This document shows positions 1-55,967 of a stretch of 56,175 nt of DNA, in pieces. How positions within the stretch are numbered: position 1 is the first letter of the stretch; every line of letters starts with the position of its first letter. Source of the stretch: Candidatus Aenigmatarchaeota archaeon (GTDB taxonomy: Archaea > Aenigmatarchaeota > Aenigmatarchaeia > GW2011-AR5 > JACRMX01); NCBI GenBank assembly GCA_018304635.1, contig JAGVVW010000002.1, forward strand, positions 1-56,175, given 5' to 3'. The position numbers were made by a program, and so were the translations under genes. The notes under the pieces are model-generated. The model was given only the letters and a program-made list of their open reading frames with translations. It ran no database searches and was not told the origin of the DNA.

Positions 1-687
1 AATATCAGCTAACACGCCATTGTCCCCGCCGATTTCCCGCACCCAGTTCACAATCTCCTGACCTCTGCCTGTTTTGATAAGATTTTCAAATGCCTGCTGA
101 GTGGTGATTGGAATTGTAGCGTAACCACGATGCTCAAGATATTGAGACCATGTAGTTATCTGCGGATCATAACGACCTTGATTTATTGCAACTATAGCTC
201 TACCATATTCTTTTTCAAATTCTGTTCTGGTAGGAACCCTTCCAAGATCTTCATTCATTTTATCAAAAACTTCATCTATTTTTTCAGGTGTCCATGTCTG
301 ATGATTTAGTTCATAGCCTCTATGTTTTAAGTACTGGTTCCATGTAGTTATCTGCGGATCATAACGACCTTGATTTATTGCACGAAGGGCTCCTCCATAT
401 TTTTTTTCAAATTCTTTACAAATAAGATTTCTTCTCAACTCTTCCTGCATCTCATCAAAAACTTCATCTATTTTTTCAGGTGTCCATGCCTGTCGGTGTG
501 TTTCACAATTTCTGTGTTCTAAGTACTGGTTCCATGTAGTTATCTGCGGATCATAACGACCTTGATTTATTGCAACTATAGCTCTACCATATTTTTTAGA
601 AAAATTTCTAAGAGTAGGAACCCTTTCAAGCTCTTCATTCATTTTATCAAAAACTTCATCTATTTTTTCAGCTGTCCACTTAACCAT
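1..687 (-). CDS. Partial CDS (3' end leaves the window): tandem 64-aa repeat protein; units resemble homing-endonuclease-associated helical repeats
   Basis: Absent from the ORF track because there is no stop inside the window. The reverse complement is open from ATG (687-685) to position 1, 229 codons: MVKWTAEKIDEVFDKMNEELERVPTLRNFSKKYGRAIVAINQGRYDPQITTWNQYLEHR... It has three consecutive 64-aa units with pattern WTxEKIDEVFDxM..LGRVPT..EF..YG..AINQGRYDPQITTW.QYL.HRGY. The ATG lies 2 nt after the TGA (692-690) of the SNF2 gene. Confidence 0.7.
   Translation of the reverse strand, partial: MVKWTAEKIDEVFDKMNEELERVPTLRNFSKKYGRAIVAINQGRYDPQITTWNQYLEHRNCETHRQAWTPEKIDEVFDEMQEELRRNLICKEFEKKYGGALRAINQGRYDPQITTWNQYLKHRGYELNHQTWTPEKIDEVFDKMNEDLGRVPTRTEFEKEYGRAIVAINQGRYDPQITTWSQYLEHRGYATIPITTQQAFENLIKTGRGQEIVNWVREIGGDNGVLADI
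103..678 (-). repeat. Three in-frame tandem 192-bp (64-codon) coding repeats
   Basis: The core ccatgtagttatctgcggatcataacgaccttgatttattgca recurs exactly at 148, 340 and 532 (period 192). The units at 148 and 532 stay identical for about 60 nt. A second block (aaaaacttcatctattttttcag) also recurs once per period. Confidence 0.9.
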
Positions 688-689
688 CT

Positions 690-3425
690 TCACCACTTTC
701 CAACAGGTCTTAATACAATATCTTCAGCTATGCCATTTGTCGCGTGTTTGTCTTTTTTGTAAATAATTACCTTTTCATATCCAAGTCTTGAAAGAATATC
801 ATCTGGAATATTTTTTGAGCCGTGTTCTCTTGCTAATTGCTCTAGTCTTTTTATGTTGTATGACGCAATAGCTGAGTGTAAAGTTCTTGTATGAACTGTT
901 TCAGGCTCATAAAATGCAAATTCCTTACATATTTGAGGCTCAACCATGGGGTATGTATTGGTTTTCGTACCTTTTTTCCCTTTTGCTTTACGTTCTTCAT
1001 CAATGGCAAATTTGAATGCATTACTGTCAGGTTTCCCGGATGGCTCTATTGCTTTGGCAACTGTAACATGAACCCTGTAATCAGAAGTTTCGGGATTTCC
1101 GTATTCATCTTCAGCATAAGTTGCCATTACAAATCCAGACATTTCCGGAATAACCTCCCATCCTGTGGTTCTCATACCATCAAAGTATCTTCTCTCGTTT
1201 TCTATTACACCTTCAGGTTCTATTGCTATTAAGTACGCGCCATCTTTCGCAACTCTTCTGGCTTCTATAAAACCACGTTCCCTTTCCTGTATTTTGCCTT
1301 TTTTTTTGTCAATGTATTCAAAAGCCAGCTGATGCGGCCCAAGAGAGAATAAAACTAGGTCATATAATCCGTTTCTCAGAGGCATTTCTGCAGCATTTGA
1401 TTGCATATAATTATTAACAGGAATGTTGGAATCATTCTTGCCTTCATTAAGCATATGATAGCATATATCAACAACATCTGTTTCTCTGCCTGTTTGTGTA
1501 GAGAGAACTCCAAATGCTCCGCACATATCAAGCATTTTCCCATCTATTCCAAGCTGCTGGATAATCTGACCATACAACCTTGCAGTCTGTGCTGAATAGG
1601 AATAGTTCCATTCCTTTGAATGAAAATATCCTGCAAGTTCCTGCGAGATTTTTTCATTACTTCTAGTTAGCATTCGCAATGTATCGCCTGCATTCAGACC
1701 ACTCATTCTCAAAAACAATCGCCTGGACATCTGGTTGTCTGTATACATTCTCTTTTCAATATCTTCTAACTTGTAGTATTCACCTTCTCCCAGACCAAAT
1801 GCTTCAGCAACATCTTCGGTCATTTTTTCACCGTGTTCCATAAAATCTATTCCGAGCTCTTTTTTCCCAAGAAGCTTGAAAACACCAGTATCAACCAGGC
1901 TTTCATCCGAAGCAATTAAGTATAAGAATTCCACATTTTCTGTCTGGCCTCTCCTGTGTAATCTTCCCGGCATCTGCCTCCATACACGTGGCGTATATGG
2001 TATATCCAGAGCAATTCCGCACTGTCCTGCTGTAAGGCCTATACCCTCTCCTGCCACTTGTGTTGTTCCTATAAATACCATTACATTCGGATCTTCATTG
2101 AATTTTCTTATCAGATAAGCACGCTGCCATATTCTTTCATTGCCATTCCACTCCATTTCTTTTGTTGCATCTACGGTCCCATCCATAACTACAGGATTAT
2201 ATTCTCTGAACAAGATTTTGAGATAATCAGTAACACCTCTCCTGAGAAGAGGTGAAAATATTACACATTTTTTTCCATGAGTAATTCTTTCATTAACTAT
2301 TTTTTTCAATTCTCTGAGCCTTGCAGAATATGTAAGCCTTGTATCACCTGTTACTAACAATCTGTATTCATCTTCTGTAATTCCTCCAGTATCAAGCCAT
2401 TTGTATGCAATTATTTCATCACTAGCATCTCTCTGGATCTTAAGCAATCGTTCTTTCACTGAAGCATTTTCTATATAATCAGGATTTACAAGTGTTGGGT
2501 CAAGTAAAGCTTTCCGCAGCTGAAGAAGTTTTTCATGACCTTCTAATTCATTATTTTCAAACAAAGCCCTGTATATATCACGCTGAAATCCATCTATATC
2601 TACCTTAACAGGACACGGCTTTGGTCTTGGTGGCAGGTCTTTAACAACATCTTCCTTTAATCTCTTTAGCCGTCTTCTTCTGAACACAGCTCTGACAATA
2701 TCTGGTTTATCCCAATAAGCATATGCAACTGCTTTTGGGTCAGGATATATAAATTCGCCATTTCCATTTATTTCGAGCAAAGATATGGTTCTAAACACAT
2801 CCATTATAGTATTGGGTATATCTGTTCCTGTAAGCATCGCAAGATATTCACTGCGTCTCGCAACTTTATCCACATTATTAGCCTGAAGTCCTGATAAACT
2901 TTTTATGTTATGCGATTCATCTAAAATAGTTAACCTGTAATCAATCCCGGATAGTCTGGATATTATTCTACCAGCAATGTCTCTTCTTCCAAAAACATCA
3001 TAATTAAATATGATAATACCTGAATTCGGTAATGATGCCAATGCTTCATCTGTATAATCATTTAAATTCCATACACGTGGTGGATTTTCACAGTATGTGT
3101 TAATCTCATCAACCCAGTGCTGTTTCACAGTATTTGGACAAATTATTACAGCTTTTGTATTAGGATTTCTATTCCTCAGTTCCTGATACACTCCAATTCC
3201 CTGAAGTGTTTTGCCTGTGCCAACTTCGTCAGCTATTAACCCGCGTTTATTTCTTATTATATGCTTAATGCCCGCTACCTGAAAAAATGCTGGGAAATAA
3301 ATATCATCGTGTTCTTTCATTCTCTCTGCAGTTATTCCATCAATTCCCTTTTCATGTATATCAAACAGGTTTTCAAATTCTTCCAATAGTTCATTCATAA
3401 TACCTTTTGCTAAATCTTCTGACAT
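690..3425 (-). CDS. SNF2/Rad54-family helicase fused to a C-terminal class I SAM-methyltransferase-like domain
   Basis: 911-aa ORF. Helicase motifs: I LIADEVGTGKT, II ILDESHNIK, III MLTGTDIPN, VI GRLHRRGQ. The C-terminal third has Rossmann MTase-like motifs: LDMCGAFG (motif I), VVDIC (II), YDLVLFSL (IV) and AKDGAYLIAIEP. No (D/N)PPY amino-MTase motif was seen. Confidence 0.8.
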   Translation of the reverse strand: MSEDLAKGIMNELLEEFENLFDIHEKGIDGITAERMKEHDDIYFPAFFQVAGIKHIIRNKRGLIADEVGTGKTLQGIGVYQELRNRNPNTKAVIICPNTVKQHWVDEINTYCENPPRVWNLNDYTDEALASLPNSGIIIFNYDVFGRRDIAGRIISRLSGIDYRLTILDESHNIKSLSGLQANNVDKVARRSEYLAMLTGTDIPNTIMDVFRTISLLEINGNGEFIYPDPKAVAYAYWDKPDIVRAVFRRRRLKRLKEDVVKDLPPRPKPCPVKVDIDGFQRDIYRALFENNELEGHEKLLQLRKALLDPTLVNPDYIENASVKERLLKIQRDASDEIIAYKWLDTGGITEDEYRLLVTGDTRLTYSARLRELKKIVNERITHGKKCVIFSPLLRRGVTDYLKILFREYNPVVMDGTVDATKEMEWNGNERIWQRAYLIRKFNEDPNVMVFIGTTQVAGEGIGLTAGQCGIALDIPYTPRVWRQMPGRLHRRGQTENVEFLYLIASDESLVDTGVFKLLGKKELGIDFMEHGEKMTEDVAEAFGLGEGEYYKLEDIEKRMYTDNQMSRRLFLRMSGLNAGDTLRMLTRSNEKISQELAGYFHSKEWNYSYSAQTARLYGQIIQQLGIDGKMLDMCGAFGVLSTQTGRETDVVDICYHMLNEGKNDSNIPVNNYMQSNAAEMPLRNGLYDLVLFSLGPHQLAFEYIDKKKGKIQERERGFIEARRVAKDGAYLIAIEPEGVIENERRYFDGMRTTGWEVIPEMSGFVMATYAEDEYGNPETSDYRVHVTVAKAIEPSGKPDSNAFKFAIDEERKAKGKKGTKTNTYPMVEPQICKEFAFYEPETVHTRTLHSAIASYNIKRLEQLAREHGSKNIPDDILSRLGYEKVIIYKKDKHATNGIAEDIVLRPVGKW

Positions 3426-3572
3426 CTAAATCACTCATACACCATTAACAGAAATAATATCTATAGAAAGGTTTAAATACTTTTGAGTAGTTAAAAAAAT
3501 GAAGGATGGGAAGTATCAAGTTCGCAATGAAATCGATCCGTCATTGGGATATAACGTCCCGGCAAAAATGGT

Positions 3573-4001
3573 TTATTTTATCTCAATCTTCTTCACTTTC
3601 TTCATTTCTTTCTTCGGAACAATGACTTCAAGAACTCCGTTTTTATACGATGCCTTTGACTGCTCTGGAACCACTTTACACGGCAGGCTCATTGTTTTGT
3701 AAAACCTACCAGCCCGTTGTTCCATACTGAAATAATTCTTTTTTTCAACTCGCTTCTCAGCTTTTTGCTCCGCATTTATCTCGATAGTGTCATCAGTTAG
3801 TTTCAGCTGAATATCTTCTTTATTCATGCCGGGCATCTCAAACCTGATTTCTAGGTTTTTTTCTGTTTCTTTTATACTTGTAAAAGGCAGCCTCAAATTT
3901 CCTAAGTCTGAAAAATTCACAGAACTGAAAATTTTATTTATCTCGTCCTGAAACCGCTTCACATCATCAGCCATAAAAACACCCCACAATTTAAATTTCA
4001 C
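3573..4001 (-). CDS. hsp20: Small heat shock protein, Hsp20/alpha-crystallin family
   Basis: Alpha-crystallin domain pattern LEIRFEMPGMNKEDIQLKL...RAGRFYKTMSLP...ASYKNGVLEVIVPKK. The ORF-track start at 4001 is GTG. The ATG at 3974 (MADDVKRF) is a more likely start. Confidence 0.85.
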   Translation of the reverse strand: MKFKLWGVFMADDVKRFQDEINKIFSSVNFSDLGNLRLPFTSIKETEKNLEIRFEMPGMNKEDIQLKLTDDTIEINAEQKAEKRVEKKNYFSMEQRAGRFYKTMSLPCKVVPEQSKASYKNGVLEVIVPKKEMKKVKKIEIK

Positions 4002-7479: not shown

Positions 7480-8277
7480 ATGTTGTTGCATACATCAAAT
7501 ACATTTATAAACTATAATCACAAACTGAAGGAAGCTGACATCATTTTTATAGGCATTCGCTTCTCTGGTCGTGCACTGAATTCCTGTTCTTATTACGGAT
7601 CAACAATTGTCCGAGAATCTTTGAAACTCACAGAAGATTCTGAAAGATTATTTGAAAAATTAAAAATCTGCGATGTAGGTGATATTGAACCCGGAACCAG
7701 CTTTGAAACAATGAGCAGTCAGATAAGAGATACGATTGAGGAAATCAAAAATCAGAACAGTAAAGCAATGCTTTGCCTCATTGGCGGTGACCATTCAATA
7801 ACACTGCCGGTTATTGAAGCTCTTAAGCCGAAAACGATCGTACAGTTTGATGCTCATGCTGACATGCGAAGTGAATTTTTAGGAGACAGATACATGCAAC
7901 AGACATGGGCATATCATGCAGCTCAGAAATGCAAAATTATTCAGGTTGGAGTTCGTGCACAGAGCAGAGAAGAAATTGAAAACGCCAAAAATCTTAACGT
8001 AGTGCAAATGAACCCGGAAGAATTCATTAGAATTTCAAAAAATATCCAAAATCCTGTTCATATAACACTTGACATGGATGTATTTGATCCTTGTTACGTT
8101 GAAACGGGTTTGCCAGAACCAGATGGCTTAACACCCAAACAAGTTCTGGAATGTTTGCAAAAAATAAATCCAGATAGCATTGATATTGTAGAAATTTCTG
8201 ATAATAGATTGCCAAGCAAGACAGGTGCATTGGCAGCTGCATGTTTGGAAAGGATGTGGAATAGTGAAAGATCTTGA
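7480..8277 (+). CDS. speB: Agmatinase/arginase-family ureohydrolase
   Basis: Mn-binding motifs GGDHSIT, DAHADMR and LDMDVFDP, followed by PEPDGLT. Confidence 0.8.
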   Translation: MLLHTSNTFINYNHKLKEADIIFIGIRFSGRALNSCSYYGSTIVRESLKLTEDSERLFEKLKICDVGDIEPGTSFETMSSQIRDTIEEIKNQNSKAMLCLIGGDHSITLPVIEALKPKTIVQFDAHADMRSEFLGDRYMQQTWAYHAAQKCKIIQVGVRAQSREEIENAKNLNVVQMNPEEFIRISKNIQNPVHITLDMDVFDPCYVETGLPEPDGLTPKQVLECLQKINPDSIDIVEISDNRLPSKTGALAAACLERMWNSERS

Positions 8278-8914
8278 AAAAATTTACCAGAAACGTTTTG
8301 GAAAAGACTCTGAATTTCGGAATAATATGTATAAAGTTCTTTGCAAATCATTTTTCCAGAAATATGTACCTGAAAATTCTGTTGTTTTAGACGTGGCTGC
8401 AGGTTATTGTGAATTCATAAATCATATAAAAGCAGGGAAGAAAATTGCTATCGATATAAATACCGATATTAAAAAATTTTCAGGAAATGATGTTGAAGCA
8501 ATTCTTTGCAGTTCAACAAACATGAAAAGTATCAAAAAAGAAAGTATAGACGTGGTTTTTTCCAGCAACTTTTTTGAGCATCTTACAAAACCTGATGTCA
8601 TCAAAACTATAAGCGAAATTCATCGCGTACTAAAGCCCAGTGGCAAACTGCTTGTGCTTCAACCGAATATCCGATATTGTTATAAAGATTACTGGATGTT
8701 TTTCGATCACATAATACCACTGGATGACCGTAGTCTTGTAGAAATACTGGAAATAAACAGATTTAAAATAGTGGAATGCAGGCCGAAGTTTCTGCCATTC
8801 ACCACAAAAAGCAAACTACCTAAATCAATAACACTTTTAAAATTATATCTCAGAATGCCTTTGGCCCAAAAAATCTTCGGTAAGCAGGCTTTTGTTTATG
8901 CTGTTAAAATTTAA
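8225..8914 (+). CDS. Class I SAM-dependent methyltransferase
   Basis: Motif I VLDVAAGYCEF, then DVVFSSNFFEHL and LKPSGKLLVLQP. The in-frame GTG at 8264 (VKDLEKIYQKRFG), which overlaps the speB stop region, is a more likely start than 8225. Confidence 0.7.
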   Translation: MHWQLHVWKGCGIVKDLEKIYQKRFGKDSEFRNNMYKVLCKSFFQKYVPENSVVLDVAAGYCEFINHIKAGKKIAIDINTDIKKFSGNDVEAILCSSTNMKSIKKESIDVVFSSNFFEHLTKPDVIKTISEIHRVLKPSGKLLVLQPNIRYCYKDYWMFFDHIIPLDDRSLVEILEINRFKIVECRPKFLPFTTKSKLPKSITLLKLYLRMPLAQKIFGKQAFVYAVKI

Positions 8915-10817: not shown

Positions 10818-11570
10818 CTAACGAAATAGAAAGTTACACTTCTTTTTGATGTTTTCAATAATATGCTTTTTATTTATCTCTATGTTTTCAGGAATAAGAT
10901 AATTTATTTCCAAAGGGTCAAAAGATTCAATCTTATCCAAAAATACAGAAATTTCAAATTTTTTGATTCCTACACTGATAAGTTTTTTAATAAACATATC
11001 CTTCATTATTTTCTTGGAAAAATTGAGCTGCATGAGATAAAACACATCTATAATATCTTTCGCATGACCTCTTGTATATAAAGCACGAAGTTTTTCACCC
11101 ACCAACTCCTCAATTTTCATCGCAGAAACTTTAAAATTTTCAATATCTGGATAGAAATGGATTACTTTCTTTTTCACTGGATTCAATAAGGGCCTTTCCC
11201 TGAAACTTAAATCTATTTTAAAAAAGTTTTTGTATCTGAGAGGTCCGATAAATGAAACGGAAAACGATTCGGACTCCTTGCCTTTGAATTTATCCCTGAA
11301 TTCAAGTCGAAACTCATTTCGTTTAAAAATATTCCGGAACACCTGCTCGAAATTTTTCCGTTTTAAAACTGTGAAATCCAGATCTTCTGAAAACCTGAAA
11401 CCTTCGATATACAATTTTTTAATAGCAGTTCCGCCTTTAAAAACCAGCGGCTCATCACGGATTTCATAAAGAAATTTCGTTATCATATAATCTTTTTCAA
11501 TAACACCGGCAGGAACTCCGGACTGTGATGCCAATCTCCTTATGATAACATCATCTAACATCATTAACAA
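10818..11570 (-). CDS. abiEii: AbiEii/AbiGii-family nucleotidyltransferase toxin (type IV TA)
   Basis: GVIEKDYMITKFLYEI...LVFKGGTAIKKLY...FRFSEDLDFT is the DUF1814/AbiEii signature. The gene overlaps the upstream antitoxin gene by 11-20 nt, depending on which Met is used. Confidence 0.8.
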   Translation of the reverse strand: MLMMLDDVIIRRLASQSGVPAGVIEKDYMITKFLYEIRDEPLVFKGGTAIKKLYIEGFRFSEDLDFTVLKRKNFEQVFRNIFKRNEFRLEFRDKFKGKESESFSVSFIGPLRYKNFFKIDLSFRERPLLNPVKKKVIHFYPDIENFKVSAMKIEELVGEKLRALYTRGHAKDIIDVFYLMQLNFSKKIMKDMFIKKLISVGIKKFEISVFLDKIESFDPLEINYLIPENIEINKKHIIENIKKKCNFLFR

Positions 11571-12282
11571 CCATCCACTTTTTATTTTTAAACACGGATT
11601 CGCTGGAAATGTTTAATTTTGTGTAGAATGAAACTTTTTTAACTTTAATAAGCATTTGTCGTTCTGAATGTGAAGGGATTTTAATTTTATTATATTCAAG
11701 AACATATCCCAGTCGTCTGATTAAAGACATGTTATTTATACGAAAAGCATAATTTATCAGCTTTTCAGTATAATATTTATTTTTAAAACAACCAATAACA
11801 TGTCTGATACCGCCGGCATATTTCGGCTTTTCCAGAGAATCCAGCAATGCCCTTTCCCTATCTGCCATAAAAATTTTTGCACCCTGAAATTCAACACATT
11901 TAAATCCGAAAAATTTTTTCTCTGAAATCTTTATCATTTGAATATCAAGAAATCTGCCATATTCTTCCGTTGTAGCAGCTATTTGAATCATGGGAACCTG
12001 ATCTGTTAAACCGTGAAAATTAAGTGCTGTTATAAATGAAAAATAATATTTCTTTATAACTTCTGAAAAAACCGATATGCTGTTTTCTTCCGGTTTTGTA
12101 TAAACTCCTTTTTTAACCCTGATCAGCAGACCCTTTTTTGCCATCCTGTGCAGAATAACAGAAGCCTCATTTTTTGTACATACGAACATGCCTATAACAT
12201 CCAGTACTGATACTGTTCGTTTTTTGTGATCCAGTACAACGCTTTCCATTTTGCTCATGGTTTTCATGAATATATTCATCAC
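11551..12282 (-). CDS. abiEi: AbiEi-family antitoxin / transcriptional regulator
   Basis: The N-terminal winged-helix-like segment ...TKNEASVILHRMAKKGLLIRVKKGVYTKP matches the AbiEi pattern (L.RL.KKG.L.R..RGVY). It is followed by a C-terminal domain of about 150 aa. It sits immediately upstream of and overlaps abiEii. Confidence 0.7.
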   Translation of the reverse strand: MMNIFMKTMSKMESVVLDHKKRTVSVLDVIGMFVCTKNEASVILHRMAKKGLLIRVKKGVYTKPEENSISVFSEVIKKYYFSFITALNFHGLTDQVPMIQIAATTEEYGRFLDIQMIKISEKKFFGFKCVEFQGAKIFMADRERALLDSLEKPKYAGGIRHVIGCFKNKYYTEKLINYAFRINNMSLIRRLGYVLEYNKIKIPSHSERQMLIKVKKVSFYTKLNISSESVFKNKKWMVVNDVR

Positions 12283-15962: not shown

Positions 15963-17216
15963 ATGAATGATAAAGTAGCTGTTATAGGCCTAGGAAAGGT
16001 AGGAATTCCAATCGTAGCTCAGTGCTTAAGCAAAGGAATGAATGTAACAGGAATAGATATAAACAATCAAACAATAGAGAATTTAAACAAAGGAATAATC
16101 AATGTAGATGAACCTGAAGCTGAAAACATTATAAAAAAAGCTCTGGAAAGAAAATTCTTCGTAGCCAGTACAAAATTTGAAGATATCTCTGAGTGTGATA
16201 TAGTCATTGTAATAATACCGCTTGTTATTGATGATGATAAAAACATTAAATATGGTCCTATTGAAAATCTGACAGTTACAATTTCAAAATTTGTTAAAAC
16301 AAATAGTCTTGTAATATACGAAACAACTCTTCCAATAGGCGATACTAGACGTTTTTCAGAAATGTTGAGAAAGGAAAAAAATATTTATGTTGCGTACAGC
16401 CCTGAACGGGTATATGCCGGTAGAATCCTGAAAGATCTTGCAACTTACCCAAAAATATTGGGTGGTGTGGATGAGCAAAGCTCAAGAAAGGCAGAAGAAT
16501 TTTATAAAAAATTACTGGATGTTAAGGTATTAGTTGCAAAAAATAGTGAAACAGCAGAAGCTTCAAAACTTTTTGACATGATATACAGGGACACCAACAT
16601 AGCTCTCGCAAATGAATATGCAAAATTTTGCCAGGACACTAACATAGATGTGGATGAAGTTATTGAATTGGCAAATACAAATCCTTTTGTGAACATACAC
16701 CTCCCTGGAATAGGTGTTGGAGGCCACTGCACACCTGTTTATCCATACTTTTTAATAAATAAATCTAAAGTTACAATACCTTCATTTGCTAGAAAAATAA
16801 ACGAGAGAATGCCGGAATTTGGTGTCAATATACTTCAAAAGGAATTGAATAAAATCGGAAAATCTATTTCTGAATCTTCTGTACTGGTTCTGGGTTTGTC
16901 ATTCAGACCGGGTGTTAAGGAACCTGCATTTAGTCCATCTATAAAAGTCATAGAAGAACTTAAAAATCACAATGCATGTGTTTATTTACATGACCCAATG
17001 TTCTCGGAAAAAGAGATAAGAAATTTTTGTGAATATGGGAATCTTAATGCAAACTACGATGCTGTCATACTCTGCACAGCACATCCTGAATACTTAAAAA
17101 TAGATTTTTCAGACATGAAAAATAAAGGCTTGAAAATTATAATTGATGGAAGAAATGTTCTAAAAAAAGAAAAAATAAAAAGTCTCGGTTTAATTTACAG
17201 AGGTATTGGAAAATGA
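15963..17216 (+). CDS. UDP-sugar 6-dehydrogenase (UDP-GlcNAc/ManNAc dehydrogenase, WbpA/WecC-like)
   Basis: VAVIGLGKVGIPIVA Rossmann motif, catalytic Cys context GVGGHCTPVYP, and a C-terminal UDP-binding domain. 417 aa. Confidence 0.85.
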   Translation: MNDKVAVIGLGKVGIPIVAQCLSKGMNVTGIDINNQTIENLNKGIINVDEPEAENIIKKALERKFFVASTKFEDISECDIVIVIIPLVIDDDKNIKYGPIENLTVTISKFVKTNSLVIYETTLPIGDTRRFSEMLRKEKNIYVAYSPERVYAGRILKDLATYPKILGGVDEQSSRKAEEFYKKLLDVKVLVAKNSETAEASKLFDMIYRDTNIALANEYAKFCQDTNIDVDEVIELANTNPFVNIHLPGIGVGGHCTPVYPYFLINKSKVTIPSFARKINERMPEFGVNILQKELNKIGKSISESSVLVLGLSFRPGVKEPAFSPSIKVIEELKNHNACVYLHDPMFSEKEIRNFCEYGNLNANYDAVILCTAHPEYLKIDFSDMKNKGLKIIIDGRNVLKKEKIKSLGLIYRGIGK

Positions 17217-17839
17217 AAGAAAAAGTTCTGGTTTTAAGTCCTCACACAGATGATGGAGAAATCGGAGCTGGTGGAACTATTGCAAAATTTATAGAAAACG
17301 GGGGTGAAGTTTTTTACGCGGCATTCTCAACATGTGAAAAATCAATATCAGAGGAGTTTCCAAAAGATATACTAAAGTCAGAAGTTAGAAAAGCAACAGC
17401 TGTCCTTGGGATTAAGCCGGAGAATTTAAATATACTTGATTATCCTGTACGAGAATTCAGCTCAAGAAGACAGGAAATACTTCAGGAAATGATAGATATT
17501 AATAAAAAAATAAATCCGGATATTGTTTTTACTCCCTGCTCAAATGACACACATCAGGATCATGAAGTAATCTCCAGAGAATCATTCAGAGCTTTCAAAA
17601 AAACCAGCATTCTTGGTTATGAAGAACCGTGGAATTGCCGCGTAATTAAGTCTGATATATTTGTTACACTTTCTGAATCAAATATTAATAAAAAAATCAT
17701 GGCTCTTAAAGAATATGAATCACAGAAAAGGGATTACTTAAATCATGAATTCATACGAAGCCTTGCAAAAGTCAGGGGTACCCAAATTGGAAAGTCATTG
17801 GCAGAAACCTTTGAGGTGATAAGGTGGATAATAAAGTAA
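17213..17839 (+). CDS. PIG-L/LmbE-family de-N-acetylase
   Basis: VLSPHTDDGEIGAGGTIAK and the HQDHEV zinc-binding motifs. Confidence 0.8.
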   Translation: MKEKVLVLSPHTDDGEIGAGGTIAKFIENGGEVFYAAFSTCEKSISEEFPKDILKSEVRKATAVLGIKPENLNILDYPVREFSSRRQEILQEMIDINKKINPDIVFTPCSNDTHQDHEVISRESFRAFKKTSILGYEEPWNCRVIKSDIFVTLSESNINKKIMALKEYESQKRDYLNHEFIRSLAKVRGTQIGKSLAETFEVIRWIIK

Positions 17840-49349: not shown

Positions 49350-50963
49350 TTACTTTCTCTTCTTTTTTCGAGCAGCCTTCTTCACAGCTTCCTGCTTTGC
49401 CTTTTCAACCCTTTCCTCAATCTTCTTTGGCTTTGGCTCCCATGGTTTGAAGTAGAGCAATGCTATGACAATTACTACTATTATCAATATAACCCACAGC
49501 CACGTATAGTTAACTTCTTCTATCGGTTCTGTACCTTTTATTGTAGTTGTCGTTGTCCCTGCCTCAGCTGCTGTAACTTTTCCTGTTATCAGTGACTGAG
49601 ATTCAATTGATGTTAATTTACCTTTTACCTGATATGACATGTCTTTAGTCTGGCCAGCTGACACTGAATCAAATGTCCATTGAACAACTGGATCAGCTTG
49701 TAGTACAGTCGGCTGTTCACCTATGAATGTTATAAGGTTTGCATTGCCTGCAACTGTCTTTGGTATTACTTCTATAATCTGAACATCCTTCATATTGCGG
49801 TCAGCTGTAAAGGAAATTGTAACTACTGAAACACTTACTTTTTTCCCGGTTGTTTTTGATGTGATATCATATACTTCTAATTTCTTGGTTGCTGTTATAG
49901 AAGTTAGTTCATTGGATTCAAGAGCACTCTTTAATTCTCTCAGTGTCTGAAGAACCGTATCATCTGTTGCACTTGCTATTATTGAATCCAGCATACTTGT
50001 TGTTACTGTACTTGAAGATGTTAGAGTTGCTGTCTTTTCAACATCTACATCTGCACTTGATAACAATTCCATACCTAAATCAGCAGGATTTATGGATTTC
50101 AGTAATTTCTCTATTAAAGGTATATCTACAATCTTTAGGGTTGTTGTTGGTGATGTTTCATCACCACCGCTGCCTCCATCTATAACACTGCTGCCGCCAA
50201 CACCTGACAATGTAGTTGTTGTCGAAGCTGTTGTAGTTGTTGTCGAAGACTGAGTAAGTGTGAACGAAGCGGTGCTTATTAATGTATCAGACAGTGAATC
50301 AGCATCGCTACTGTCAGGCATTGTAACTTTAAAAACAGATTTATATGTTCCTGTTGACCATGTACTCGGAACAGTCATCAATATAGTGAATTTCATAGAA
50401 ACATCGCCAACAGAATAACTATAAGCTTCTGCTGTCTCATTCCATTCATAGCCACTATAACCATAACCATTGCCATCATCTCCAAACAATGTATTATCAT
50501 AAGCACTTGACCAATAATATCCATCATAGCCATGATCAAATGAATCAGTTGCATTTGCAAGATAAGCAACATAACCATAAGCATAACCAAAGCCAAATGA
50601 AGTACTGCGTGTCATATTCACAACAAGGCTTACTGTATTATTACTAGAATCAGTACAGTTAACTTGGTTATTCAAATAACCAGCACTGTTTATCGGTATT
50701 AAACAATTATTGATATTAGTCGAACCCTGAATTGTTAATGTCAGATTTTTAATAGGAACATGTTCTCCGTTTGCAATTGAAATGTTAGCTGTTATCAATA
50801 CTGTCTCGCCTGGTTCATAATATCCATCGCCATCGCCATCATTTGCTGTAGCTGTCATTACTATATTTAATGCAGAAACAGGACCTGAAACTATCAGTAA
50901 AGTAAATACAATCAATGCACAAAAGATGCCTATGAGTTTTTTGAGGCGATTATCCAATTTCAT
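49350..50963 (-). CDS. Secreted, C-terminally membrane-anchored surface protein (candidate S-layer/surface glycoprotein)
   Basis: N-terminal signal/anchor KKLIGIFCALIVFTLLIVSGPVSA, an aromatic/Gly-rich segment (GFGYAYGYVAY...GNGYGYSGYEW) and Thr/Ser-rich linkers (QSSTTTTTASTTTT). It ends in a C-terminal TM helix WLWVILIIVVIVIALLYF and a Lys-rich tail. It carries at least seven N-x-S/T sequons. Confidence 0.65.
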   Translation of the reverse strand: MKLDNRLKKLIGIFCALIVFTLLIVSGPVSALNIVMTATANDGDGDGYYEPGETVLITANISIANGEHVPIKNLTLTIQGSTNINNCLIPINSAGYLNNQVNCTDSSNNTVSLVVNMTRSTSFGFGYAYGYVAYLANATDSFDHGYDGYYWSSAYDNTLFGDDGNGYGYSGYEWNETAEAYSYSVGDVSMKFTILMTVPSTWSTGTYKSVFKVTMPDSSDADSLSDTLISTASFTLTQSSTTTTTASTTTTLSGVGGSSVIDGGSGGDETSPTTTLKIVDIPLIEKLLKSINPADLGMELLSSADVDVEKTATLTSSSTVTTSMLDSIIASATDDTVLQTLRELKSALESNELTSITATKKLEVYDITSKTTGKKVSVSVVTISFTADRNMKDVQIIEVIPKTVAGNANLITFIGEQPTVLQADPVVQWTFDSVSAGQTKDMSYQVKGKLTSIESQSLITGKVTAAEAGTTTTTIKGTEPIEEVNYTWLWVILIIVVIVIALLYFKPWEPKPKKIEERVEKAKQEAVKKAARKKKRK

Positions 50964-53543: not shown

Positions 53544-55967
53544 CTACCTCATAAGATCTTCATACATTCTGTCATATTCTTCTTTGCTTATCTCGCCGCG
53601 GGCATATCGTTGTTTGAGAATGCTCATCGCATCTGGCTCCTGAGACATCTGAGATTGCTGTGATGGTGGCTGTGATGGCCCGCCAGGACCTTCTCCTGGA
53701 TACATTTCCATAAGCTCTCTTAAAGTTCCTTCACAGTGCGCACTAATCCATTCTTTATTTGGCGGTCCCCCTGCCGGCAGTGTAAAAACACCACGAACAT
53801 TGGGCTGTATTGAACATATCATATCAGCATCTGGCTCCCTGGCATATATTTTAATTTCACAATTTCCATCTTTTAAGCCTATGATAGTTAATGTAGCGTC
53901 CCTGTCCGGATTAGCTGTAACATCTGGTGTGCATTTCATGAAATCTTTTATAAATCGGGCCATATCTGAGCCATAGTTCTTACTTTCTGCTGCTTTACTT
54001 CCAACATCAGCGCCAAACAACGCACCAACAACCCGCTGTGTAAGAGTGAGTTTTACCTCGTCAAATCTTGTAAATATATCATTTAAGTCATTTTTTGTCA
54101 AACCCGGTCTCTGCAATTCTTGTCCAACTGCATCTATCTCAGGTCCGATAGAATCCAAAATACTTGCAGCTAATTTAAAGCGCTCAGCCATTTCTTTATC
54201 ATCTGCACCCTCATAATAACCAGCCAAGTCTATAAGTTTTGGTTTTAATTCATTTTTAAGTTTTGCTTTCAATTCAATTAATTTAAGAGCAGCACTAAGT
54301 ACATCCTCTGAAGAAGGCATTTTATCAAATCTTCTTACATTGTATTCAACAGCCTCATTTTCAAGACCAATACATCTAACAATTTGTATACACGGACTGT
54401 TTTCGTAATTTTGTATAACAAGCTCTCCTCCTCTGTTTTGACAATCTTTTACAACTGAGGGAATTTGTTCATTCAGGTCTTTCAGGCATTTTTTAACACT
54501 ATCCTCATTAAAAGGCTCGCATAAATATTCATCACACTGTCTAGCACCGGCAAAGAAATTAGTAATCATGTTTTTAGAACTACACTCATCAACAGCATGT
54601 TTAACTCTTTCAAATTCAACCCTGCAGGTGCGTAATCTTTGCTCATCATAATTTCCCTCGGATTGAATATAGTTTTCTTGTTCATATGGCTGAGATGCAT
54701 ACTTTCTTTGCTCTTCGCAGCGAATTACTGAGCAGCCATTTGAATCTCTTTCAGACATCGACCGTAAACCACGTTTTTCGCATTCCATGGCATATTTATC
54801 TAATTCAGCCATATTAGGACACATTATTTCAGCTCTTTGAACAGTAGCAGTAGGCTGTAAAGAAAAGATAGGTCTTGCTTCTTCTTCTCTGGATACACAC
54901 ACTAAATGCTCACAGCCATCCTGACCTCGTTCCCGTACAACTTTTAAAGGGCATTCTTTGCTAAACTGTAATTCATAATTTACATCTATTGGCTTGCACT
55001 GAACCTGCTTTCTGGTTTCACAAATAGTTCGTATCATTCCTGTTGATGGATCTACAATATCACGGCATCCATCAGTACGCACTTCACATGATTTGCATTC
55101 ACATTCATTTGTATTTGAATTATAATAGCATGGAACACTGCGACCATCAGAGCACTTTTGCGGCTCACATCCTCGTGGTGCTCCTCCTACAGTCCCTGCC
55201 TGACTATAAGGAGCTGGACCATATGGTTGCTGCCAACCACAATCATCATGACATTGACCACCTGCTTTTTCATTTGCAGTACAATAACCATCACCACACG
55301 AGCCAGTTGACTGAGTTCTGCAGTCAGGATCACCAGGACAGCCTTCAGGACAATAATTATCAGGAATACTGCTGCATGTTATTGGCGGCTGCGGAACAAC
55401 AGACACAGAATCACTGCAATCTCGCGGACAATAAACTCTTCCACTTCTTTCAGCATCATCACACTTTCCATCACCGCACCATTGCTGTTCAGGGTATTCA
55501 GACTTTGCAGAGCATTCAGCATCAGGCGGATTAAAACATCCAGCAGGACAAACACCATCACCAGAAATACATGCTATTGGATTATAAACATTAACGGATC
55601 GTTGAATATCTCTACAATAATATTCAAGACAACCATTAGAATTTGTTCTTGCATCATATCTATCAGGACATTGTTTGTATATTTCTTCTTTTTGTCTTGC
55701 TAACTCTTCTGCATCAGGACATACAACAACAGCAGGTCTTTCAATAATTGTTGTAGTTACATCTGTAATAGTTGTTGTAGTTTCCAAAACAATTGTTATT
55801 GGGGCCTGCGTAGTTGTTGGGGCTTCTGTTGTTGTCGGAGCTTCAGTAGTTGTTGTCTCAGTAGTTGTTGGAGCTTCAGTAGTGGTTGTTTCATCCTGCG
55901 CAAAAACAAGAGTGGAAGAAATAAGCACGAAACAAACAAATAGTATTGAAAAAAACTGTTTTCTCAT
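53544..55967 (-). CDS. Large secreted Cys-rich protein with N-terminal Thr-rich repeats and C-terminal SHOCT-like motif
   Basis: 807 aa. Signal peptide MRKQFFSILFVCFVLISSTLVFA-QD, then (T)TTEAPTTTE repeats. It has many Cys, including CGDG.C...C..DC units and five 4-Cys modules. A Pro/Gln-rich linker follows. The C-terminal ILKQRYARGEISKEEYDRMYEDLMR matches the SHOCT pattern. Confidence 0.75.
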   Translation of the reverse strand: MRKQFFSILFVCFVLISSTLVFAQDETTTTEAPTTTETTTTEAPTTTEAPTTTQAPITIVLETTTTITDVTTTIIERPAVVVCPDAEELARQKEEIYKQCPDRYDARTNSNGCLEYYCRDIQRSVNVYNPIACISGDGVCPAGCFNPPDAECSAKSEYPEQQWCGDGKCDDAERSGRVYCPRDCSDSVSVVPQPPITCSSIPDNYCPEGCPGDPDCRTQSTGSCGDGYCTANEKAGGQCHDDCGWQQPYGPAPYSQAGTVGGAPRGCEPQKCSDGRSVPCYYNSNTNECECKSCEVRTDGCRDIVDPSTGMIRTICETRKQVQCKPIDVNYELQFSKECPLKVVRERGQDGCEHLVCVSREEEARPIFSLQPTATVQRAEIMCPNMAELDKYAMECEKRGLRSMSERDSNGCSVIRCEEQRKYASQPYEQENYIQSEGNYDEQRLRTCRVEFERVKHAVDECSSKNMITNFFAGARQCDEYLCEPFNEDSVKKCLKDLNEQIPSVVKDCQNRGGELVIQNYENSPCIQIVRCIGLENEAVEYNVRRFDKMPSSEDVLSAALKLIELKAKLKNELKPKLIDLAGYYEGADDKEMAERFKLAASILDSIGPEIDAVGQELQRPGLTKNDLNDIFTRFDEVKLTLTQRVVGALFGADVGSKAAESKNYGSDMARFIKDFMKCTPDVTANPDRDATLTIIGLKDGNCEIKIYAREPDADMICSIQPNVRGVFTLPAGGPPNKEWISAHCEGTLRELMEMYPGEGPGGPSQPPSQQSQMSQEPDAMSILKQRYARGEISKEEYDRMYEDLMR

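Follow-up and report, generated by a model that had tools for sequence, protein, structure and literature searches.

A SNF2 ATPase–Methyltransferase Fusion with Repeat-Array Partners in DPANN Archaea, a Candidate Core of a Targeted Methylation Machine

Introduction

What does an archaeon do with a SNF2-type motor protein that ends in a methyltransferase-like domain and is followed directly by a gene for a repeat protein? The question is raised by a 911-amino-acid (aa) open reading frame (ORF) near the left end of contig JAGVVW010000002.1 of Candidatus Aenigmatarchaeota archaeon (assembly GCA_018304635.1). Positions 1 to 56,175 of this contig, the whole stretch of DNA analysed here, are referred to below as the window. 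An earlier reading made from the sequence alone (the sequence-only reading) had described the ORF as an SNF2 helicase fused to a methyltransferase-like domain, and had taken it, together with the repeat protein, for an uncharacterised two-gene module of nucleic-acid surveillance or of a mobile element.

The analysis reported here points to a somewhat larger assembly. We suggest that the SNF2–methyltransferase fusion may be the catalytic core of a modular, multi-subunit machine present in DPANN archaea and in at least one bacterium of the candidate phyla radiation (CPR), with partner proteins that would direct it to its target. We describe the fusion protein, its partners, and a recurrent companion gene, compare them with known systems, and then weigh this interpretation against its alternatives.

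Results

The Fusion Protein and Its SNF2 Motor

The window ORF encodes a Snf2-family ATPase in which both lobes and motifs I, II, III, and VI are present. SNF2-rel_dom matches aa 60-293 (Pfam, 3.8e-20, 72.6 bits against a cut-off of 24.9) and Helicase_C matches aa 372-493 (1.2e-6, 29.1 bits against 23.5); the generic helicase domain ResIII also matches the ATPase. The best solved relative found in a search of the PDB is the SNF2 core of Sulfolobus solfataricus SSO1653 (1z63, 79 bits); ERCC6 and a yeast DNA repair protein are also among the solved SNF2 relatives, and the best matches outside the family include proteins annotated as RapA. What the fusion has in common with SSO1653 and RapA is the SNF2 ATPase core, at approximately 24-26% identity over the ATPase only, whereas the flanking domains are unrelated.

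The seven motifs that the sequence-only reading had named in this ORF, four of the SNF2 set and three resembling those of methyltransferases, were all recovered by pattern search, and each occurs exactly once (Table 1). Its claim that the stop codon lies 2 nucleotides (nt) before the start of the repeat protein is likewise accurate: the TGA (692-690) is followed by AG and then by the ATG (687-685) of the partner gene, here called B1. An alternative start for B1, an in-frame GTG 6 nt further upstream, would overlap the TGA of the fusion. The identical 911-aa protein, with the same neighbours, is encoded on 18 public contigs from several samples of groundwater and soil metagenomes.

The C-Terminal Methyltransferase Domain

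The C-terminal domain of the fusion has a class-I S-adenosylmethionine (SAM) methyltransferase fold and is not a DNA amino-methylase. An AlphaFold2 (AF2) model of aa 555-911, built from a 35-sequence alignment, has a pLDDT of 90.2 and a pTM of 0.89, and all 50 of the 50 PDB matches listed by Foldseek for this model are class-I SAM methyltransferase folds or close derivatives of them (E 3.6e-9 to 1.9e-7). The best superpositions are with nucleomethylin/Rrp8 (2zfu, TM 0.71-0.73) and Bud23/WBSCR22 (TM 0.66-0.69), at sequence identities of 12-16%, and a PDB profile search matches 2zfu over the strand 4-6 region. Against a viral structure library, only generic methyltransferases were matched. Rrp8 (m1A) and Bud23 (m7G) are rRNA enzymes that methylate purine ring nitrogens; Bud23 needs Trm112. 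Both act as stand-alone RNA methyltransferases, whereas the domain described here forms a single protein with a DNA motor and has a DNA-purine-binding fold encoded nearby (see below).

Profile matches among relatives agree with the model. Within the 35-sequence alignment, 34 members match Methyltransf_11 and 19 match Methyltransf_8 (Rrp8, PF05148; E ≤ 1e-3, best 2.3e-14), and one protein (P0123) scores 28.8 bits for Methyltransf_8 against a cut-off of 27; the window protein itself is not matched by Methyltransf_8. When its C-terminal part is scanned alone, the window protein scores 22.7-23.1 bits for Methyltransf_11. We consider the methyltransferase assignment solid because the profile matches of the relatives and the structure both support it. 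A pattern search for (D/N/S)PP(Y/F/W), the motif of DNA amino-methylases, found no occurrence in the 911-aa protein and one among 155 family C-terminal domains. The sequence-only reading had placed the domain in the small-molecule, RNA, or protein class of methyltransferases, and the missing PPY-type motif, the Foldseek matches, and Pfam all concur; the SAM-binding type of fold that it had supposed is the one seen in the AF2 model and in the Foldseek matches.

The SAM loop of the 155 members surveyed has the consensus D-[LI]-[AG]-[SC]-G-P-[GA]; the relative P0003 carries the canonical form G-S-G-P-G. The acidic residue of strand 2 is kept, reading D, D, E, and D in the four closest proteins.

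Repeat-Array Partners and the Docking Domain

Contigs that continue past the left edge of the window give the gene order B1, B2, a gene related to the human glycosylase AAG, TYW1, a DsbA-like gene, and others. The complete B1 protein (334 aa) consists of three 64-aa repeats followed by a C-terminal domain of approximately 135 aa, which we call the docking domain. The B2 gene overlaps the stop codon of B1, and its product, of approximately 261 aa, has two repeats of another sequence type followed by the same C-terminal domain. The docking-domain DNA common to B1 and B2 is identical at 419 of 421 nt (99.5%), and it is because of this near-identity that the window contig ends within B1 and that longer assemblies contain runs of N. 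In four sequencing runs, contigs split at window position 109, with a branch that leads into the B2 junction. The unitig depth over window positions 1-100 is approximately 2-5 times that of a single copy in three of four metagenome runs; since the depth in some runs exceeds what B1 and B2 alone would give, further docking-domain genes may exist elsewhere in the genome. The number of repeats differs between assemblies, being two (P0274) or three in B1 and two (P0278) or three (P0279) in B2, and one contig of run X13 contains a joint going back 192 nt, equal to an extra repeat. These differences could represent real polymorphism in the population or assembly collapse.

Across the family, the docking domain occurs both fused to the motor and apart from it. 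A hidden Markov model (HMM) of the domain, iterated to convergence, locates it N-terminal to the SNF2 core in 36 of 59 long members of the family, compared with 2 of the 60 short ones and none of the 116 generic SNF2 proteins. Where fused, it begins approximately 170 residues before Walker A and ends approximately 100 residues before it. In the short-type loci the repeat protein is separate: wherever flanks are available, in six loci of six, a repeat-array partner adjoins the fusion gene. Five of these six loci show the docking domain, which occupies the C-terminal end of each partner; in the sixth (L009) the partner leaves the contig before its C-terminus, and the domain is hence not visible there. 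The linkage to the repeat protein that had been proposed from the window alone is thus a property of the family. As the docking domain is fused to the motor in long members and carried by a separate protein in short-type loci, a Rosetta-stone argument from fusion and fission suggests that the partners bind the motor through this domain.

The short-type loci have from one to three partners each, in tight operons whose genes overlap or are separated by gaps of ≤10 nt. Among the three nearest relatives, P0003, P0004, and P0002, the first (L007) shares a single tight operon with flanking genes for three repeat proteins (516, 577, and 532 aa), and downstream of P0004 (L009) comes a protein with seven or more repeats. 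There are two docking-domain partners in L094, one of them with about ten 68-aa repeats, and docking-domain partners also lie beside the short-type gene in L096 and L101. Fused arrangements include P0002, from an Aenigmarchaeota metagenome-assembled genome, in which six B1-type repeats and the docking domain precede the SNF2 core, and a 1529-aa protein of Ca. Paceibacterota (CPR; L090), in which eight repeats, the docking domain, the SNF2 motor, and the methyltransferase form a single chain. The long-type loci L092/L093 and L100 encode separate repeat proteins that have in common a short C-terminal motif of type LLSDIRECFDAYTG. Where a locus contains several partner paralogues, their arrays differ and the docking domain is kept (99.5% nt identity in the window locus, 59-76% elsewhere).

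The repeats of the relatives are HNH_repeat-like, HTH-like, or Myb-like, with up to approximately ten per protein, and the partner arrays of these relatives are strongly basic (isoelectric point (pI) 8.8-10.4, net charge up to +50). In B1, HNH_repeat (PF18780) matches a single 20-residue stretch at 26.4 bits against a cut-off of 26; B2 is unmatched, and faint precomputed HNH_repeat matches are present in the L007 partners and the P0002 fusion. The HNH_repeat, which is associated with homing endonucleases, has similar helical units of approximately 55-64 aa ending in G-x-W/F...G, but no nuclease domain is attached to the partners of the module, and other loci use HTH-like or Myb-like repeats instead. 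A structure of repeats plus docking domain was predicted from the homologous segment of P0002; in this model the repeat unit folds as three helices, and the docking domain too is entirely helical (pLDDT 85).

The AAG-Like Companion

A third kind of component was identified just outside the window, approximately 100 nt after B2, where a 157-aa gene encodes a protein of the Pur_DNA_glyco family, to which human AAG/MPG belongs. With B2 and this gene present, the module is not the two-gene unit that the sequence-only reading had assumed. Against the Pfam cut-off of 27 bits, the window-locus protein scores 39.5 and its counterpart in L094 scores 60.8. Locus context was surveyed in 12 distinct loci. 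An AAG-like gene adjoins the fusion in six of them (the window locus, L094, L096, L091, L092, and L099), compared with 0 of 80 control SNF2 loci (1.14 Mb); the controls were ordinary bacterial SNF2 loci from a contig scan by full-length alignment, one of which, L090, proved to be a true fused family member. The gene lies 10 nt upstream of the fusion in L094 and L099 and overlaps the stop codon of the fusion in L091 (Nanoarchaeota), where a second AAG-like gene (16681-17334) is found 5 kb and five genes downstream of the first and is followed by a gene for a Holliday-junction resolvase (Hjc). The match in L092 is weak (E 1.6e-5). Two of these proteins also resemble the repeat proteins at their ends: the L094 protein terminates in a B1-type repeat, and the weaker L092 protein in the same motif as the neighbouring repeat proteins.

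A profile of three AAG-like proteins aligns to human AAG with E 4e-6; a single-sequence PDB search found nothing. The six HMM-detected proteins align with the human enzyme across its V-E-T-E-A-Y block, which in them reads METGSY, VETGAY, TEVGAF, AMASAY, IKASAY (the second L091 gene), and VETQAY. The general base, Glu125, is replaced in six out of six, by G, G, G, S, S, or Q, and the VETQAY of the L099 protein is the same change as in the engineered dead E125Q enzyme of 1EWN. In addition, a deletion of approximately 11 aa removes the segment containing His136 in five aligned proteins, the L099 protein keeping that segment, and the proteins of L094 and the window locus lack Tyr159 and Tyr162. 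These proteins are probably binders of purines rather than glycosylases that excise them.

Extent of the Family

A profile of the C-terminal domain, built from aa 555-911 of the four closest proteins, was searched against 1.84 billion representative sequences. Its matches numbered 724 at E ≤ 1e-3, of which 278 reached E ≤ 1e-10 and 47 reached E ≤ 1e-30. Almost all of them are proteins of 770-1800 aa that carry the domain at the C-terminal end, and the family amounts to several hundred 50%-identity clusters. A word-indexed search with the full protein had found just three true relatives; it was the exhaustive profile search that showed the larger family. The motif W-x-x-S-Y-S-x-N/Q-x-A, located in the helical segment before the methyltransferase core, was also chosen as a search pattern for the family. 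Among distant members that were sampled, seven of seven carry SNF2-rel_dom, and five exceed the Methyltransf_11 cut-off, one of the sampled proteins also exceeding that of Methyltransf_8. The named members come from DPANN archaea and a single CPR bacterium; Aenigmarchaeota supply the nearest named relative of the window fusion and Nanoarchaeota a more distant one, and identity among the nearest members is only approximately 30%. A scan of metagenome contigs with the C-terminal profile yielded two short contigs, in one of which (L097) the match is followed by a docking-domain ORF.

Comparison with Known Systems

The module has no entry in PADLOC or NCBIfam and no description in the literature searched, in agreement with its earlier classification as uncharacterised. 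The PADLOC models ZorD, DrmD, BrxH, and DpdE score on the generic SNF2 part of the fusion (ZorD with 93.8 bits, over aa 54-324 in the SNF2 region only); these matches span the ATPase alone, and neither the methyltransferase domain nor the partners nor the AAG-like protein is matched in PADLOC. In NCBIfam, the equivalog scores are 10-60-fold under their cut-offs: 57 bits against 610 for DISARM_DrmD, 25.6 against 1500 for ZorD, and 26.5 against 576 for RapA (PRK04914). No DISARM DrmA/DrmB or ZorABC genes were found among the neighbours at the window locus; no N6_Mtase, Methylase_S, or HsdR nuclease domain was detected by Pfam or NCBIfam in the fusion, B1, B2, or the L094 partner; and the fusion and its conserved neighbours contain no detectable nuclease domain of any kind. 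There is no integrase in the gene tables of the flanks and no tRNA gene in the five loci scanned with ARAGORN. Relatives of the family are absent from IMG/VR, the INPHARED phages, and the PLSDB plasmids, and the PHROGs matches are insignificant. Across the 56-kb window (1-56175), no Rfam family reaches its gathering score. The features that define DISARM, Zorya, RapA/HepA, and Type I restriction-modification (R-M) are therefore not those of this module; nor are those of mobile elements, in a search for integrases, tRNA genes, and phage or plasmid relatives that did not extend to direct repeats at the borders.

Two known systems merit closer comparison. Class 1 DISARM and the SNF2-methylase fusions of conjugative elements are similar in coupling or fusing an SNF2 ATPase to a SAM methyltransferase, and DrmD models match the ATPase weakly. 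Their methylase, however, modifies adenine at N6 in DNA and carries a (D/N)PPY motif, whereas that of the module is Rrp8/Bud23-like and lacks it, and DISARM also differs in its drmA, drmB, and drmC genes, none of which is found at the module. To our knowledge, neither docking-domain partners nor a dead AAG-like protein form part of DISARM. The Type I R-M systems (HsdR/HsdM/HsdS) are alike in concept, combining a translocase and a methylase with separate, exchangeable specificity paralogues that share a conserved segment, but the motor of the module is SNF2 and is fused to the methylase, and its putative specificity modules are helical repeat arrays. The resemblance appears to be one of logic and not of membership. 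We rate the module as an undescribed relative of the ATP-driven methylation modules with specificity subunits.

Organization of the Window and Its Surroundings

The features of the module within the window are listed in Table 1.

Table 1. Features of the SNF2–methyltransferase module in the window, with the positions of the motifs in the fusion protein
Feature	Window positions	Strand	Basis
Partner gene B1, first 229 of 334 aa: three 64-aa three-helix repeats and start of docking domain; gene leaves window	1..687	minus	Sequence; full gene on L006; Pfam HNH_repeat
Docking domain start, DNA near-identical to B2	1..109	minus	Loose end at 109; depth; B1/B2 comparison
192-nt tandem repeat, 2.8 copies, coding for the B1 repeats; copy number varies between assemblies	148..678	.	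TRF, 81% match
SNF2–methyltransferase fusion gene, 911 aa + stop	690..3425	minus	ORF list; Pfam domains; identical protein on 18 public contigs
C-terminal alpha/beta tail, aa 793-911, partly conserved (FAFYEPET strand), length variable in family	693..1049	minus	AF2 secondary structure, pLDDT 65-94; alignment
Class-I SAM methyltransferase core, aa 631-792: motif I D-M-C-G-A-F-G, strand-2 acidic VVDIC, strand 4 YDLVLFSL, family-invariant ERE...EA.R block	1050..1535	minus	AF2; Foldseek; Pfam
YDLVLFSL, aa 688-695	1341-1364	minus	Pattern search
VVDIC, aa 651-655	1461-1475	minus	Pattern search
LDMCGAFG, aa 632-639	1509-1532	minus	Pattern search
Helical segment before methyltransferase core, aa 556-630, W-x-x-S-Y-S-x-N/Q-x-A motif (WNYSYSAQTA)	1536..1760	minus	AF2 helices H2-71; conserved alignment columns
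RLHRRGQ, aa 488-494	1944-1964	minus	Pattern search
SNF2 ATPase lobe 2, aa 372-493, with motif VI RLHRRGQ	1947..2312	minus	Pfam Helicase_C; motif position
SNF2 ATPase lobe 1, aa 60-293, with Walker A GTGKT, DESH, TGT	2547..3248	minus	Pfam; motif positions
TGT, aa 199-201	2823-2831	minus	Pattern search
DESH, aa 169-172	2910-2921	minus	Pattern search
GTGKT, aa 69-73	3207-3221	minus	Pattern search
147-nt A/T-rich spacer, Hsp20 gene to fusion start; putative TATTTAAA-like and GGTG elements	3426..3572	minus	Inference, by eye

A PD-(D/E)xK-like nuclease motif picked out by eye in the C-terminal tail of the fusion was rejected, as its candidate residues are not conserved in P0002.

Upstream of the module lie genes for Hsp20, SepF, UPF0147, prefoldin, L37Ae, and diphthine synthase, and the gene content is that of an archaeon. 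Core genes are thus found on both sides (Hsp20 and SepF upstream, TYW1 and the DsbA-like gene downstream), and the earlier impression that the module sits at the edge of a housekeeping block does not survive the extension of the sequence beyond the window. The guanine-plus-cytosine (GC) content is 0.37-0.40 in the module and 0.32-0.36 in the flanking genes (window 1-4000; L001 11000-15000). At the right end of the window (52-56 kb) the GC content is similarly raised.

Several other genes near the module or its relatives are recorded here. The minus strand at 10818-12282, approximately 7 kb from the module and within a glycosyltransferase gene cluster, encodes a toxin of the AbiEii type (Pfam, 99.9 bits), preceded upstream by a weakly matched AbiEi-like antitoxin (21 bits); the two form a pair of the type IV toxin-antitoxin kind. 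A stand-alone 229-aa Methyltransf_11 protein (45.9 bits) encoded on the plus strand at 8225-8914, by glycosyltransferase genes, is apparently unrelated to the fusion. At 53544-55967 (minus strand) there is a gene for an 807-aa Cys-rich protein with a hydrophobic leader, a Thr-rich N-terminal stretch, and a C-terminal SHOCT domain (33.8 bits), and this is adjoined by a gene (49350-50963) for a 537-aa protein that is rich in Thr and Ser and has a hydrophobic segment at its C-terminal end; the two are probably surface proteins. In locus L100, a Fic-domain gene and a SET-domain/zf-CDGSH gene (657-2516) lie just upstream of the fusion gene (P0156), on the opposite strand.

Discussion

A Model of the Proposed Machine

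The observations above can be assembled into a model in which the SNF2–methyltransferase fusion is brought to its target by repeat arrays. Partner proteins carrying arrays of three-helix repeats would attach to the N-terminus of the motor via the shared helical docking domain of approximately 120-135 aa, and the arrays would select the site of the complex on nucleic acid, most likely DNA. ATP hydrolysis by the motor, acting as an SNF2 double-stranded DNA translocase, would open access to the substrate, and the methyltransferase would then modify the target, the favoured substrate being a ring nitrogen of a DNA purine. The AAG-fold protein, lacking the catalytic glutamate, may bind the flipped or methylated purine as a reader or a shield without excising it. 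A possible role for such a machine would be the marking of the cell's own chromosome, for regulation or for self-identity. A DNA purine is favoured as the target because the conserved companion has a DNA-purine-binding fold. The identities of the domains, the methyltransferase fold, the pattern of fusion and fission, the conserved gene linkage, and the loss of the AAG general base are observed; the docking, the DNA target, the kind of methylation, and the role are parts that we infer, and we give the composite an even chance of being correct.

A number of observations weigh against this model. The model of repeats plus docking domain has no PDB match below E=1 in Foldseek, so that the argument for DNA binding by the arrays comes from the weak HNH_repeat match and from charge. 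At the window locus itself, B1 and B2 have short arrays of slightly acidic character (pI approximately 6), unlike the basic arrays of the relatives, and DNA binding is for this reason least well supported at this very locus. Methyltransf_11 scores 20.9 bits on the whole fusion protein, just below its 21.2-bit cut-off, a borderline result. Motif I of the window protein, D-M-C-G-A-F-G, is degenerate: the central Gly, present in 127 of 155 members, is replaced by Ala in 17 of 155, the window protein included, and SAM binding by the window copy is consequently only putative. No AAG-like gene adjoins the fusion in 6 of the 12 loci. Rrp8 and Bud23 act on RNA, so the likeness of fold does not itself point to DNA, and we know of no enzyme that writes a ring-nitrogen methylpurine into DNA. 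No member of the family has a less canonical SAM loop or less basic arrays than the window copy, which therefore appears to be the one whose activity is least certain.

The model can be taken further, to a programmable writer, reader, and remodeller of a non-canonical DNA mark, in which the arrays would aim the motor, an m7G-, m1A-, or m3A-like base would be written, and the dead glycosylase would read or shield it. We regard this bolder version as rather unlikely.

Alternative Explanations

Resemblance to Type I R-M raises the possibility that the module is an R-M-like anti-virus system, with arrays comparable to HsdS, a methyltransferase that marks self, an SNF2 motor that translocates, and damage inflicted by a non-canonical chemistry of the AAG-like protein or by an unlinked nuclease. 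One motor-methylase with several exchangeable, specificity-like subunits per locus is what Type I systems have, and the number of repeats is apparently polymorphic between assemblies. The family is also patchy and fast-evolving, with low identity among nearest members and frequent fusion and fission; toxin-antitoxin genes occur near some loci (PIN in L007, MazE/PemK in L008, and AbiEii in the window); and the SNF2 part scores against the ZorD, DrmD, BrxH, and DpdE models. On the other hand, PADLOC matches nothing beyond this generic ATPase, no nuclease domain is present in the fusion or its conserved neighbours, and in each of the six cases the sole candidate effector is without its catalytic residue. 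Core operons are the setting of several loci, one of which directly follows an RNAP-L30e-NusA operon, and searches of viral and plasmid collections gave no relative. We consider a defensive role of this kind unlikely.

The rRNA methyltransferases that are the closest folds to the C-terminal domain suggest a different function, that of a housekeeping factor of transcription or of ribonucleoprotein particles: an SNF2 protein working, like RapA, on RNA polymerase or on chromatin, and methylating RNA (nascent or ribosomal) or a protein of chromatin or polymerase. RapA-annotated proteins among the best non-family matches of the ATPase, and the weak NCBIfam RapA match, are in keeping with this, as are the core genes that flank the window locus. 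In L092, moreover, P0269 (1316 aa) is encoded 125 nt after a same-strand operon for RNA polymerase (Rpb5-type subunit, B, A), an L7Ae-type ribosomal protein, and NusA. That position is found in one lineage only, however; the RapA model scores far below its cut-off; the conserved companion has the DNA-purine-binding AAG fold and is not an RNA-binding protein; and the family, with its 278 clusters at E ≤ 1e-10, is in our judgement too sparse for a universal factor. We hold a housekeeping function of this sort to be quite improbable.

A complex dealing with alkylation damage, in which the AAG-like protein would sense alkylated purines, SNF2 would clear the site, and the methyltransferase-like domain would serve, in this genome at least, as a scaffold without catalysis, would accommodate the degenerate motif I of the window protein and of its 17-member sub-clade. 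The AAG fold is dedicated to the recognition of alkylpurines, and SNF2 proteins act in repair elsewhere, ERCC6 and the yeast DNA repair protein being among the solved relatives. Most of the family, however, keeps the canonical SAM loop and the strand-2 acidic residue, which implies that the domain is under selection as an enzyme. Furthermore, a non-catalytic sensor without a linked AP endonuclease would be an odd design for repair, and targeting arrays of diverse sequence would not be expected in general repair. A repair complex of this type seems to us very doubtful.

That the module is the cargo of a mobile element or provirus, as the sequence-only reading had also suggested, is scarcely credible and for this locus largely refuted: the slightly raised GC content of the module and a transposase-like 404-aa ORF with paired Cys motifs, identified by eye in L094 (2-1216), two genes upstream of the fusion and adjoining the AAG-like gene, are outweighed by the absence of an integrase or tRNA gene in the flanks, including the sequence left of the window, by the recurrence of the locus, neighbours included, on 18 contigs from several samples, and by the lack of relatives in IMG/VR, INPHARED, and PLSDB, with insignificant PHROGs matches.

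Conclusions

A methylation machine aimed by repeat arrays remains the interpretation that we prefer, at the strength given above. DPANN and CPR genomes are tiny and contain little that is dispensable, yet some of them keep a module of 4-6 kb that combines, in a manner not seen before, a motor of the chromatin-remodeller type, an rRNA-type methyltransferase, interchangeable repeat arrays with a docking domain of their own, and a repair-glycosylase fold whose catalytic residue has been lost repeatedly. Two of these parts, the docking domain and the disabled AAG partner, may be new in their own right. The pattern of fusion and fission leads to testable predictions of which proteins bind each other, and those members of the family whose motifs are canonical lend themselves to expression and assay. 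Should the module act on DNA, it would point to a novel type of DNA mark and a new way of aiming enzymes at sequences; were the writer-reader version true, it would provide the first enzymatically written N-methylpurine mark in DNA, together with a natural, modular scaffold for DNA targeting. If it acts instead on RNA or protein, it would establish a new link between SNF2 motors and methylation in prokaryotes.

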